From Escherichia coli (GTDB taxonomy: Bacteria; Pseudomonadota; Gammaproteobacteria; Enterobacterales; Enterobacteriaceae), in NCBI RefSeq assembly GCF_024298765.1, contig NZ_CP101210.1: a DNA stretch of 64,000 nucleotides. One strand, given 5' to 3'. How positions within the stretch are numbered: position 1 is the first letter of the stretch; the number at the start of each line of letters is the position of its first letter. Shown here in pieces: positions 18,511-55,394 of this stretch. A program made the translations under genes and the position numbers. The notes beneath the pieces were generated by a model that was not told the DNA's origin, did not search any database, and worked only from the letters and a program-made list of their open reading frames with translations.

Positions 18511-19499
18511 AACACCCGGTAACCACCGTAAGCATCGGCCTGAAGCACACCGCTGTAACCGGCCAGGTGATTTTGTGGATGGATACCTTTCTGGTCCGGA
18601 CTGTACGCGAACCAGACCGCCGGGGGCATCTGTGAACCGGCGTTACGGTCATCACGGACGTAGACCCACAGCCGGGCTGTCCGGGTTTTACCGCTGCCCG
18701 GCTCCTGGACCGGGACGGGGATATCATCAGCATGGACTTTACCGGGCATCAGCACATACTGGCGCAGGACGTCATACAGCGGCTCCAGCAGTTCAGCAAC
18801 AGCACTGGTCCAGCGCCCCAGCGTGGCGCGGCTCACCTCTACACCCTGACGACGGTATATTTCTGACTGGCGGTATAACGGCAGATGGTCTGCATACTTC
18901 CCGGTGACGACATGGGCCAGAAGCCCCGCTCCGGCATAGCTGCGTGCAATGGGTTTTGAAGACACCGGTGCCTGCACGATATGGTCGCACCGGCAACAGG
19001 CCAGTTTCGGACGTTGTGTTTCGATAACCTTAAAGGCGCTGCTGATAAGCTCCAGTTGCTCTGACACATCACATCCCAGAGAACTGAGTTCGCCACCACA
19101 GGCCGGGCAGCATTCCTCTTCCGGCCGGATAACCCGGGTTTCACGTGGAAGTGAGGCCGGTAACGGTTTACGGGCTGAAGACTGGCGCAGGGCGGATGGC
19201 AGTACCGGATCATACTGCTCACCCAGCGTTTCTGCCATTTCTTCCTGAAGTGCGCTGATTCGCTCCTGTGCTTCCTGTATCTGCCGTTCGGTTTTTGCGC
19301 GAAGTTTTTCTGAGCTTTTACCGAACTGCATACGCTGCAGTTTCGCAACCAGCGCCTTCAGCCGGTTGATTTCAGAAGCATAAGCCGCCACCCGCTGTGA
19401 GAGCAGGCAGTTGTATTCGGCCATCTGGCGGATGGTGTCCTGTTGCGTCTGCAACAGTGCCCGCAGGCGGGCATTCTCATGAGCAAGTGAGGTGTCCAT
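18511..19499 (-). pseudogene. IS66-family transposase TnpC, C-terminal third missing
   Basis: 334 codons versus 523 in copy 2; similarity to copy 2 stops at 18511. Confidence 0.7.
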
Positions 19500-19518
19500 A
19501 TCCTCACTTTACAACGGG

Positions 19519-19866
19519 TTATATGCGGATTCCAGCGCGTTCCGTTCGTTTCGGGTGCTTCCAGTTGATGCCCTCAAGAAGCATGGACAACTGAGCCGGA
19601 GTAAGGTGAACCTTTCCATCGCGGGTGACCGGCCAGACGAAGCGGTCCCGCTCTAGGCGTTTGGTGAAGAGGCACAGTCCGTCGCTGTCAGCCCACAACA
19701 CTTTTATCTGGTCACCCCGGCGTCCGCGGAAGATGAACAGGTGTCCGGAGAACGGGTCATCCTTCAGGACGTTCTGAACTTTTGACGCCAGGCCGTTAAA
19801 GCCATTTCGCATATCGGTGATACCTGCAACCAGCCAGATACGCGAACCGGCAGGGATAGATATCAT
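19519..19866 (-). CDS. IS66-family TnpB (orf2)
   Basis: 115 aa MISIPAGSRIWLVAGITDMRNGFNGLA..., near-identical to 54165..54512. Confidence 0.8.
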   Translation of the reverse strand: MISIPAGSRIWLVAGITDMRNGFNGLASKVQNVLKDDPFSGHLFIFRGRRGDQIKVLWADSDGLCLFTKRLERDRFVWPVTRDGKVHLTPAQLSMLLEGINWKHPKRTERAGIRI

Positions 19867-20516
19867 CAGTGGCTGCTCCCTTTTATTTCACGGATAAGTG
19901 TCTGTAATAACGCCGGCGTCAGTTTACCTTTCAGCCTGAGAGTTCCGGCCGGCAGAACCAGCTCACAGCACAGACTGTCGGACAGTGTATTTGTCTGTTC
20001 AGGTATCTGCACTGGTGCCGGGATTTTATTATCCGGCTCCGGAGTTAACGTCACGGGAAGTAGCGATGTTTCATGTTCGCCGGGCGACTGCAGGCCGCCG
20101 TTACGCCAGAGACGCCGCCAGTTAAAGAGCAGGTTATCGTTGATTCCGTTCTCACGAGCTATTTGTGCGACACAGGCACCGGGTAAAAGAGTTTGCTGAA
20201 CAAGTCTCCATTTAAACTCCGGTGAAAATTGGTTCCGGCGGGTTTTCTCTGTTTTCACAGTCTGAGTTACTGTCGGGGCTGAAGGGTATCGCCCCGGGAA
20301 CAGAGCCCGGGCCAGTTGCACGCAGGAATATTCCCCGGAAAGAGGCCAGTCAGTGAATACCTGGTGAAATCGCCTCACCAGAGAAAAAATGGCGGTTTTG
20401 CTGATACCGGTCTGCGCAGAAATGCGCGGGTACGACAGTGACTCGTCAAATCTCAGTTGTAGCACACGCAGGATCAATTCCGGATTGTCTGCCAGTACCG
20501 CCTTTCGTGCATTCAT
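19866..20516 (-). CDS. IS66-family TnpA-like (orf1) with divergent N-terminal half
   Basis: C-terminal ~120 aa identical to 54512..55189 (QPGACVAQIARENGINDNLLFNWR...LIREIKGSSH); N-terminal ~95 aa unrelated between the two copies. Confidence 0.6.
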   Translation of the reverse strand: MNARKAVLADNPELILRVLQLRFDESLSYPRISAQTGISKTAIFSLVRRFHQVFTDWPLSGEYSCVQLARALFPGRYPSAPTVTQTVKTEKTRRNQFSPEFKWRLVQQTLLPGACVAQIARENGINDNLLFNWRRLWRNGGLQSPGEHETSLLPVTLTPEPDNKIPAPVQIPEQTNTLSDSLCCELVLPAGTLRLKGKLTPALLQTLIREIKGSSH

Positions 20517-20807
20517 CTTAAATGTCCCTTTACTGCGAAAATGGACATTAGTATCGGAAACAGGAAAGGGAGGCGAAAGACGGTTTAAATGAGACGGTTA
20601 CTGTTTTTTAGCATTTTCAATGCATAACAATTGCGAATTATATGCGTTATCTGATTGAGACAAAAGATATCCATTTTTCTCATGACAATACCATCTCCAT
20701 TTATTGTCATCAGTTTTATAAAATTTCCATATTAATCTCTGATTGCCAGATATCTTATAAATCATAATATGCTCCACTCCCCAGGGAAACGACCCTGGGG
20801 AAGGTAA

Positions 20808-54145: not shown

Positions 54146-54164
54146 ATCCTCACTTTACAACGGG

Positions 54165-54512
54165 TTATATACGGATTCCAGCGCGTTCCGTTCGTTTCGG
54201 GTGCTTCCAGTCGATGCCCTCGAGAAGCATGGATAACTGAGCCGGAGTAAGGTGCACCTTGCCGTCACGGGTGACTGGCCAGACGAAGCGGCCCCGCTCC
54301 AGGCGTTTGGTGAAGAGGCACAGTCCGTCACTGTCAGCCCACAACACTTTTATCTGGTCACCCCGGCGTCCGCGGAAGATGAACAGGTGTCCGGAGAACG
54401 GGTCATCCTTCAGGACGTTCTGAACTTTTGAGGCCAGGCCGTTAAAGCCATTTCGCATATCGGTGATACCTGCAACCAGCCAGATACGCGAACCTGCAGG
54501 GAGAGATATCAT
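54165..54512 (-). CDS. IS66-family TnpB (orf2)
   Basis: 115 aa, conserved IS66 orf2 (MISLPAGSRIWLVAGITDMRNGFNGLA...). Confidence 0.85.
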   Translation of the reverse strand: MISLPAGSRIWLVAGITDMRNGFNGLASKVQNVLKDDPFSGHLFIFRGRRGDQIKVLWADSDGLCLFTKRLERGRFVWPVTRDGKVHLTPAQLSMLLEGIDWKHPKRTERAGIRI

Positions 54513-55189
54513 CAGTGGCTGCTCCCTTTTATTTCGCGGATAAGTGTCTGTAATAACGCCGGCGTCAGTTTACCTTTAAGCCTGAGAGTTCCGGCCGGCA
54601 GAACCAGCTCACAACACAGACTGTCGGACGGTGTATTTATCTGCTCTGGTTCCTGTGCGGGGGCCGGGATTTTATTATCCGGCTCCGGCGTTAACGTCAC
54701 GGGAAGCAGTGCCGGCATATTTTTTCCGGAAGGCAGCAGGCCACCTTTCCGGTATTGATGGCGCCAGTTGAAGAGCAGGTTATCGTTGATTCCGTTTTCC
54801 CGGGCGATCTGCGCCACACAGGCTCCGGGCTGCAGTGACTGCTCCACTAAGGCGATTTTAAACTCATAAGGGAAGTTGGGCCGCCGGGGACGTTTTTTTA
54901 CCACGGGGGCTTCGGATATAACGGTGCTTTCAGGACGTACGACTGGTACCGTGGAAAATTGTCCGTAAAGGCAGGCATCAAGTTCCTGCTCCGACATGCC
55001 TGCGGGCAAAGGCCACGAAAGGCCAGCTCTCCGAAAGCGCACGAACATACTACAAACTGTTGATTTTGATACACCCAGGCGACGCCCGGCCACAACCCGG
55101 GGTAAATGTTCTTCAAAGTGAAGACGTAAAGCTTCAGTGATCCAGGTCCGGTGTTTCATACGATAGTGTCCATTAAAAATGATGGACAT
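54512..55189 (-). CDS. IS66-family TnpA-like (orf1) with long N-terminal HTH extension
   Basis: 225 aa; C-terminal half identical to 19866..20516. Confidence 0.6.
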   Translation of the reverse strand: MSIIFNGHYRMKHRTWITEALRLHFEEHLPRVVAGRRLGVSKSTVCSMFVRFRRAGLSWPLPAGMSEQELDACLYGQFSTVPVVRPESTVISEAPVVKKRPRRPNFPYEFKIALVEQSLQPGACVAQIARENGINDNLLFNWRHQYRKGGLLPSGKNMPALLPVTLTPEPDNKIPAPAQEPEQINTPSDSLCCELVLPAGTLRLKGKLTPALLQTLIREIKGSSH

Positions 55190-55394
55190 TATTTTTGTAG
55201 AGCCGGAGGAAACAGACCAGACGGTTTAAATGAGCCGGTTACAAAGATATCACCGGCTTTCGCTCTTATTTTCCAGATGTATTGCGACTAATATTCGAAG
55301 AGCAATTATCTGTTCGGGCTATCGCACTGGAGCAGTTAGGCCTCAGTCATTCCACCGTTCATAATATCTTTCAACGGTTTAATGCCTCTGGCAT

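Follow-up and report, generated by a model that had tools for sequence, protein, structure and literature searches.

Two IS66-family elements around 32 kb of accessory genes in Escherichia coli: probably a separately acquired, deletion-prone repeat pair rather than a composite transposon

A stretch of 64,000 nucleotides from Escherichia coli contig NZ_CP101210.1 (assembly GCF_024298765.1), referred to here as the window, carries two insertion sequences (ISs) of the IS66 family in the same orientation on either side of about 32 kb of accessory genes. A reading made from the nucleotide sequence without database searches (the sequence-only reading) had taken this layout for a composite, potentially mobilisable and deletion-prone unit. 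The analysis reported here indicates, with a probability that we place at about 0.85, that the left element (copy 1) and the right element (copy 2) were acquired separately, that their bracketing of the cargo is accidental, and that together they form an ordinary deletion-prone repeat pair and not a transposon. Copy 1 would be an old ISCro1-like variant beside pgtP that lost the 3' half of its tnpC gene and its outer inverted repeat to an insertion of ISEc31 and that is now immobile. Copy 2 would be a young and intact ISCro1 that entered, with an 8-bp target duplication, a cluster of IS66-family remnants that is a recurrent ISCro1 target. Positions of all features are collected in Table 1.

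Evidence for separate acquisition

A total of 14 complete E. coli genomes, including STLEFF_47, APEC E12049 (O78:H4), and MSHS 133, match window positions 17000-41000 at 99.8-100% identity, and over positions 1-49000 the window differs from STLEFF_47 at 6 positions. Copy 2 is missing from 14 of these 14 nearest relatives, all of which share copy 1 and its surroundings; they cover 88% of positions 41000-64000 and the missing 12% is copy 2. In APEC E12049 the site is cleanly empty and holds one AAAGATAT, the octamer that flanks copy 2 on both sides in the window, and besides the 2707-bp insertion only 2 single-nucleotide polymorphisms (SNPs) separate the two sequences in 20.3 kb. Given this empty site with a single AAAGATAT and the 2 SNPs, copy 2 appears to be a very recent and strain-specific insertion. 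The junction of copy 1 with pgtP was found in 150 of the 5426 complete E. coli genomes that make up the collection searched for all collection-wide counts given here, and 4 genomes hold a full-length version of the copy 1 element beside pgtP, interrupted by IS21. Both copies in the arrangement of the window occur in none of the 5426 genomes.

The two elements also differ in their state of preservation. Copy 2 shows the features by which members of the IS66 family are recognised, namely the gene order tnpA-tnpB-tnpC, imperfect inverted repeats, and the 8-bp duplication. Its termini, GTAAGCGGCTCGTCAGAACCGT and GTAACCGGCTCATTTAAACCGT, agree at 14 of 22 positions and at 10 of the first 11 (counted by hand), and the junction diagnostic of its insertion is AAAGATAT followed directly by GTAAGCGGCTCG. 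Its proteins match the full set of Pfam families HTH_Tnp_1 (TnpA), TnpB_IS66 (TnpB), and LZ_Tnp_IS66, zf-IS66, DDE_Tnp_IS66 (profile positions 1-283 of 284), and DDE_Tnp_IS66_C (TnpC). Evidence that elements of this type are mobile comes from the nine different sites of this region at which a 2699-bp ISCro1 lies in other genomes; copy 2 and the ISCro1 copies that IMT5155 and 64.1 carry at other positions differ at 31-32 nucleotides (98.8% identity). Copy 1 retains an intact end on the tnpA side, where its left inverted repeat (IRL) at 20601, GTAACCGTCTCATTTAAACCGTC, is nearly the same terminus as the IRL of copy 2. It is cut at 18511 and lacks both the final ~195 codons of tnpC and the right inverted repeat (IRR), and the match of its TnpC to DDE_Tnp_IS66 ends at profile position 139 of 284. 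Without an IRR and with an incomplete DDE domain, copy 1 is therefore best regarded as a remnant and not a functional element. The coordinates of both elements, their shared minus-strand orientation, the truncation of copy 1, the completeness of copy 2, and the 8-bp duplication AAAGATAT had all been given correctly by the sequence-only reading.

The same cannot be said of its figure of about 97% identity over about 2 kb, which is too high. Comparison of the window with itself aligned positions 18511-20183 with 53157-54829, an ungapped block of 1673 bp with 94 mismatches (94.4% identity) in which the longest perfect runs measure 158, 101, and 81 bp. When the copies were compared in sliding fashion at their fixed offset of 34,646 bp, identity ranged from 90 to 99% to about position 20000 (96.4% overall up to 19999), was near 75% for the following ~180 bp, and fell to random level (18-39%) for the final ~415 bp. 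At the protein level, TnpB, which copy 1 retains intact, and the common part of TnpC are each 97% identical between the copies and TnpA 57%, and the N-terminal half of copy 1 TnpA is unrelated to copy 2 TnpA. Copies 1 and 2 are thus different IS66-family variants, not two copies of one IS, and the 1673-bp block is the only substrate for recombination between them.

A separate observation concerns the divergent segment itself. The ~415 bp proximal to the tnpA 5' end and IRL (20184-20601 versus 54830-55242) are unrelated, yet the outermost ~23-bp termini are nearly identical. An exact-protein look-up of the 523-aa copy 2 TnpC returned 48 blocks in many contexts, none of them in this island, and in these the same TnpC stands beside a TnpA of either 225 or 215 aa. 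This pairing of one TnpC with either TnpA implies that the tnpA-proximal module is exchangeable among ISCro1-like elements.

Predicted recombination between the two elements

Copies 1 and 2 are direct repeats, and their homology is far longer than the minimal processing segment. Unequal crossing-over of the RecA type at this 1.67-kb, 94.4% identical repeat would delete 34,646 bp or free it as a circle, with a truncated hybrid IS remaining in the chromosome. The released circle, which would not replicate, would carry the cargo and a complete hybrid IS. That the exchange takes place in this strain, and at what rate, we infer by analogy with a natural recombinant formed by the same types of IS.

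This recombinant belongs to a sister arrangement of the island, present in IMT5155, DE17, 64.1, and ABW_A19, in which both elements are likewise direct repeats, in the opposite order. There, the DUF4198 gene is followed on its right by ISCro1 and, 22-26 kb further on, by truncated copy 1 beside pgtP; the IS66 nest, an autotransporter gene, IS1, fecIRABCDE, and IS remnants occupy the space between the two elements. Strain GPEC673 has a single full-length IS66 element of 2704 bp between the DUF4198 side and pgtP (positions 18854-21557 of its locus; the 64.1 locus holds the two parental copies at 12751-14841 and 38950-41648), and it shares with 64.1 the ISCro1 insertion site, marked by the half-duplication CACTGGAG. 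Aligned with the parental copies of 64.1, the GPEC673 element is of the copy 1 type in 541 of 541 informative columns on the pgtP side and of the ISCro1 type in 761 of 761 on the other side, with 0 discordant columns and a switch confined to 38 bp. Its flanks, which are not a duplication, agree fully with those of the parents in 64.1 (the left flank of ISCro1 and the pgtP flank of copy 1); a hybrid with both such flanks is unique to GPEC673. Compared with 64.1, whose surrounding island is 99.1-99.8% identical, GPEC673 lacks 26,194 bp; the loss took with it fecIRABCDE, IS1, three IS66-family elements, and the autotransporter gene. Over the corresponding 1673 bp, the parental copies of 64.1 show 94.7% identity, which is the level of divergence seen in the window. 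A patchy-mosaic picture of the hybrid, obtained against the window's own copies, was discarded because the 64.1 parents resolve one clean crossover. GPEC673 thus derives from a 64.1-like island by one clean crossover, and the mechanism can therefore be considered validated for this pair of ISs, with deletion of the window's interval following as a prediction. The wider meaning is that IS66 copies diverged by ~5% do mediate 26-kb island deletions, which here removed an autotransporter gene and the iron-citrate operon fec, and that the pgt, sugar-uptake, adhesin, and metal-receptor genes of the present strain lie between repeats able to delete them jointly.

Several observations weigh against a deletion-prone pair. 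The predicted deletion product, a 4086-nt sequence composed of the left flank, the hybrid IS, and the right flank, was found at a coverage of at least 80% in 0 of 5426 genomes; the parental configuration was also found in 0 of 5426, and the absence of the product is uninformative because no collection genome has the parental configuration from which it would arise. Since the copies diverge by 5.6% and share no perfect run longer than 158 bp, mismatch-repair barriers should make exchange less frequent than between identical ISs. Additionally, the genomes with both copies in the sister arrangement yielded a single natural recombinant. In a rival reading, divergence and mismatch repair would suppress exchange to the point that the repeat pair is inert and the interval no less stable than any other 35 kb, and the plasticity of the island would proceed via IS1, the YagK/ProQ backbone repeats, and the integrase/selC site. 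Such a reading would fit the missing deletion product, the use of IS1 and a YagK-like repeat as junctions during the evolution of the island (see below), and the fact that an 86% identical direct repeat (53-1459 versus 27143-28603) and the IS1 copies likewise flank large segments. It is nevertheless improbable, given that a pair diverged by ~5% did recombine in GPEC673 and that the YagK-like repeat, which has recombined, is more diverged still (84% identity).

The preferred reading, of a separately acquired pair that may recombine, accordingly retains part of what had been proposed from the sequence. The expectation that recombination would excise or circularise the whole set stands in so far as the copies are direct repeats and the same IS types recombined in GPEC673; for the interval in the window it is a prediction. 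The description as deletion-prone is supported by the analogy with GPEC673, and no deletion product of this interval occurs in the collection. 

Unlikely alternatives: a composite transposon or a single event

That the segment is composite and potentially mobilisable is not supported. To be mobile, a unit oriented in this way requires a rightward-reading end at its left and a leftward-reading end at its right. Leftward-reading (minus-strand) IS66-type ends lie in the window at 20601, 55242, and 58860, and rightward-reading (plus-strand) ends at 52387, 52438, 52544, 55395, 55468, and 56350; none of the latter type was found in the window to the left of 20601. With no partner end to the left of 20601, therefore, neither 18511-55242 nor the cargo alone has a usable pair of ends, and the two copies, judged by these ends, could not act as a composite transposon that carries the ~32-kb interval along. 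The alternative, in which the transposase of copy 2 would act on the outermost ends and move the whole 36.7-kb unit, can point to a cargo flanked by two ISs of one family, to TnpA, TnpB, and TnpC that are all intact in copy 2, and to the good end that copy 1 keeps, which nearly matches the IRL of copy 2. This sole retained end faces inward, however, and copy 1 has lost its outer end (IRR). Moreover, no duplication surrounds the unit as a whole (flanks CCACTACA at 18503-18510 versus AAAGATAT at 55243-55250), the unit 18511-55242 was found in no other genomic context in the collection, and of the two copies the nearest relatives carry copy 1 alone. The composite transposon is thus contradicted by the missing outer end, the absent duplication, and the single context, and we consider it very unlikely. 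Whether an arrangement of IS, cargo, and IS is a transposon depends on its surviving ends, and here the needed end is gone.

Even less credible is an origin of both copies in one event, as an unresolved cointegrate of replicative transposition or by duplication of the IS, with co-import of the DNA between them: the same orientation, as a cointegrate would give, and the 96-97% similarity of the central parts would suit it, but the 94 mismatches in 1673 bp together with the unrelated ~415-bp tnpA/IRL-proximal segment, the 8-bp duplication that copy 2 has of its own, the wide occurrence of the copy 1/pgtP junction without copy 2, and above all the empty site in relatives that already hold copy 1 and all of the cargo contradict it.

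An insertion hot spot for ISCro1

The region to the right of the DUF4198 gene into which copy 2 inserted (window 52387-52543 and 55243-55800; about 11400-12300 of the empty-site reference) appears repeatedly as a target. The stretch is made up of stacked IS66-family remnant ends, and a 2699-bp ISCro1 is present at nine different positions within ~560 bp of these ends in different E. coli genomes, always in one orientation; eight of the nine insertions have their own 8-bp duplication. In positions of the empty-site reference, the insertions are at 193 in GPEC60-33-648 (GTCCATC, a 7-bp overlap), 236 in the window (AAAGATAT), 238 in IMT5155 (AGATATCA, read from the sequence; DE17 and VTB96815v are placed here by their identical hit span), 259 in XDL (TTATTTTC, read from the sequence; BEN2908 is likewise placed by identical hit span), 318 in 64.1 and GPEC673 (CACTGGAG), 538 in E06 (ACCAAAGT), 558 in TUM9754 (GAAAAATG), and 746 in CM196105 (CTTCAGAG), and in AR_0085 within an IS3-type insert at the same place (GGAGAACA). 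In STLEFF_47 the same nest contains ISEc22 and ISEc8.

The probability that nine of nine insertions share one orientation by chance is about 0.004 (two-sided, by our own arithmetic). A tentative explanation, which at present seems to us rather less probable than otherwise, is that ISCro1, and perhaps the IS66 family generally, may prefer to insert beside resident IS66-family termini in an orientation-specific manner (end-proximal homing). To the best of our knowledge, such homing has not been described for the IS66 family, and a literature search on IS66 target sites or mechanism found nothing useful. If true, end-proximal homing would keep creating direct-repeat pairs like copies 1 and 2.

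Module structure of the island

The window was compared with 66 kb of the IMT5155 island at tRNA-Phe (pheU). Window positions 6019-27602, comprising IS1, fec, IS remnants, copy 1, pgt, and a YagK-like gene, correspond to IMT5155 local positions 40170-61752 at 99.7% identity. Positions 27105-64000, which run from the YagK-like gene, ProQ, and LacI to the receptor, the IS66 nest, and the autotransporter gene, correspond to local positions 3241-39678 at 97.3-99.98% identity in four blocks. The selC island of the window (6019-64000) and the pheU island of IMT5155 (NZ_CP005930.1, 2563240-2621751) are thus circular permutations of one ~58-kb unit, with permutation junctions at IS1 (6019-6786) and at a YagK/YfjJ-like repeat of ~500 bp, the copies of which are 84% identical in IMT5155. 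The YagK-like gene is a hybrid in the window and marks the true module junction within the flagged interval. Because pgt belongs to the IS1-fec-pgt module and the rest of the cargo to the module that extends from LacI to the autotransporter gene, the interval between the two IS66 copies is not a natural module.

The permutation suggests that the ~58-kb module may have moved as a circle, excised via one pair of repeats and re-entering via another. One candidate route, entry of the ~58-kb module, bounded by IS1, into an hlyE-IS1-int(selC) site that already existed, found no support: the predicted empty target of 2928 nt had no match in the genome collection, and the two IS1 copies have 9-bp flanks that neither match nor form a duplication. 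As a further observation, the 86% identical direct repeat mentioned above is 1.4 kb long, consists of YagK/YfjJ-like and ProQ/FinO-like backbone genes, and brackets the segment hlyE-IS1-fec-copy 1-pgt, forming another potential deletion substrate.

Island setting and cargo

In the near-identical relatives, the sequence beyond the end of the window continues with the autotransporter gene, IS1, an integrase gene, and tRNA-Sec; in STLEFF_47 the tyrosine recombinase gene and tRNA-Sec lie ~5 kb beyond the window end and thus outside the window. The integrase gene and tRNA-Sec at the island edge in these relatives therefore identify the window, by synteny, as part of a selC-associated E. coli genomic island.

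Cargo genes were named after the RefSeq annotation of STLEFF_47, which is near-identical to the window, and this annotation bears out the gene list of the sequence-only reading (pgt, the phosphotransferase system (PTS)-transketolase genes, the adhesin, NanE/PTS, ugpB, and the receptor pair). Further content of the interval by annotation includes a phytase-like esterase and an IS110 pseudogene. The Zur box that had been noticed at the receptor pair is present as the Zur-like palindrome TGTTATGTTATAACA (49453-49467), which precedes the receptor gene by 26 bp; it is the sole Zur-box-like palindrome in the window, where 0.05 would be expected by chance.

Table 1. Positions of the IS66-family elements, their neighbours, and the cargo in the window.
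Feature	Position	Strand	Remarks
ISEc31 (IS3-family) remnant	17597-18510	+	Ends on the right in ...CACTACA, where it meets and truncates copy 1
Copy 1, truncated IS66-family element (ISCro1-like variant)	18511-20601	-	
Copy 1 genes	tnpC' 18516-19499; tnpB 19519-19866; tnpA 19866-20516	-	TnpA 216 aa
pgtP; pgtC-pgtB-pgtA	20808-27031	pgtP -; pgtC-pgtB-pgtA +	Phosphoglycerate transport locus; tail of the IS1-fec-...-pgt module
Hybrid YagK/YfjJ-like pseudogene	27105-27602	+	pgt-side type to 27560, LacI-side type from 27568
LacI-family regulator, PTS IIA/IIB/IIC (ascorbate type), split transketolase	28809-34064		RefSeq annotation
YadA-like trimeric autotransporter adhesin, 419 aa	35291-36550	+	Internal 99-bp repeat
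nanE-like epimerase, PTS IIC (maltose/glucose type), RpiR/MurR regulator	38267-41502		RefSeq annotation
IS2 insertion	43112-44441	-	Also in XDL, not in IMT5155
ugpB-like substrate-binding protein gene	45833-47149	-	RefSeq annotation
Zur-like palindrome, TonB-dependent receptor, DUF4198 protein	49453-52273	+	Palindrome 49453-49467; receptor 49493-51463; DUF4198 protein 51482-52273
Stacked ends of older IS66-family remnants	52387-52543	+	GTAAGCG... at 52387 and 52438; left part of hot spot
8-bp target duplication AAAGATAT	Left 52536-52543; right 55243-55250		Single-copy in APEC E12049
Copy 2, intact ISCro1 (IS66 family), 2699 bp	52544-55242	-	
Copy 2 genes	tnpC 52574-54145; tnpB 54165-54512; tnpA 54512-55189	-	TnpC 523 aa, TnpB 115 aa, TnpA 225 aa
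Nest of further IS66-family elements and remnants	55395-58860		Ends at 55395, 55468, 56350, 58860; complete element 56350-58860 (minus)

A few further observations concern the cargo and its surroundings. The adhesin gene contains, at 35804-35982, two 80-nt units spaced by 99 bp that are 88% identical, and the IMT5155 allele encodes 452 instead of 419 aa, the additional 33 aa corresponding to one further 99-bp unit; the adhesin stalk thus varies in repeat number. Annotated at 47350-47621 are a 51-aa fragment of a PemK/MazF-family toxin and a 35-aa open reading frame; they lie between ugpB and the decayed gene of a DDE transposase and are probably remnants. To the left of copy 1, in the block 15466-18510, an intact IS30 (16381-17532) lies between inverted IS3-family fragments (15631-16399 and 18337-17569) that are 65% identical. 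The block, which is conserved in both IMT5155 and 64.1, resembles the IS-in-IS layout that other E. coli strains show next to fec.

Comparison with known systems

The window holds a new instance, in a configuration absent from the 5426 genomes, of ordinary IS-driven island plasticity, and it reveals no new principle. Its practical value is small; the leads that it offers are the ISCro1 hot spot and the permutation of modules between selC and pheU via IS1 and backbone repeats.

The deletion of IS-flanked islands by homologous recombination is textbook knowledge. In Yersinia pestis, the 102-kb pgm locus is reportedly lost by recombination between flanking copies of IS100. The present system resembles pgm/IS100 in that direct IS repeats surround tens of kb of accessory genes and in that loss leaves one IS, as seen in GPEC673 relative to 64.1. 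It differs in that the repeats are two variants (94.4% identical over 1.67 kb), one of which is a stump, that the pair occurs only in this strain, and that deletion of this interval was not observed among the 5426 genomes. Composite transposons with directly repeated ISs are of the Tn9 type, and these share with the window the same-orientation ISs around cargo; unlike them, the arrangement in the window has lost its outer end, has no flanking duplication, and has not been seen to move as a whole.

ISCro1 is a member of the IS66 family that was first named in Citrobacter rodentium, where it has expanded, to 24 copies in strain ICC168, and where ISs flank rearrangements (PMC3072379). It has also been reported from ST131, as an element of 2,824 bp that lies within a hot spot of ISs upstream of afaA (PMC8764528). 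Copy 2 agrees with ISCro1 in its tnpA-tnpB-tnpC order, full set of TnpC domains, GTAAGCG/GTAACCG-type ends, and 8-bp duplication, and RefSeq annotates near-identical copies as "ISCro1 family"; unlike the ST131 element it is 2,699 rather than 2,824 bp long. Copy 1 departs from ISCro1 in its unrelated tnpA 5' module (TnpA of 216 versus 225 aa) and in its truncation.

At the level of the island, the tkt1 island was set aside as a comparison, since it occupies a different locus (metE-ysgA) and is irrelevant here. Closer are the mosaic islands at selC and pheU of avian/extraintestinal E. coli, such as AGI-3 of strain BEN2908 (Chouikha et al. 2006, as cited in PMC3349570 and PMC12928451). The BEN2908 chromosome matches 65% of window positions 17000-41000 at 98.6% identity and carries an ISCro1 in this hot spot as well. 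The island in the window differs in that it carries the IS1-fec-pgt module as well, and it is circularly permuted relative to the pheU island of IMT5155.

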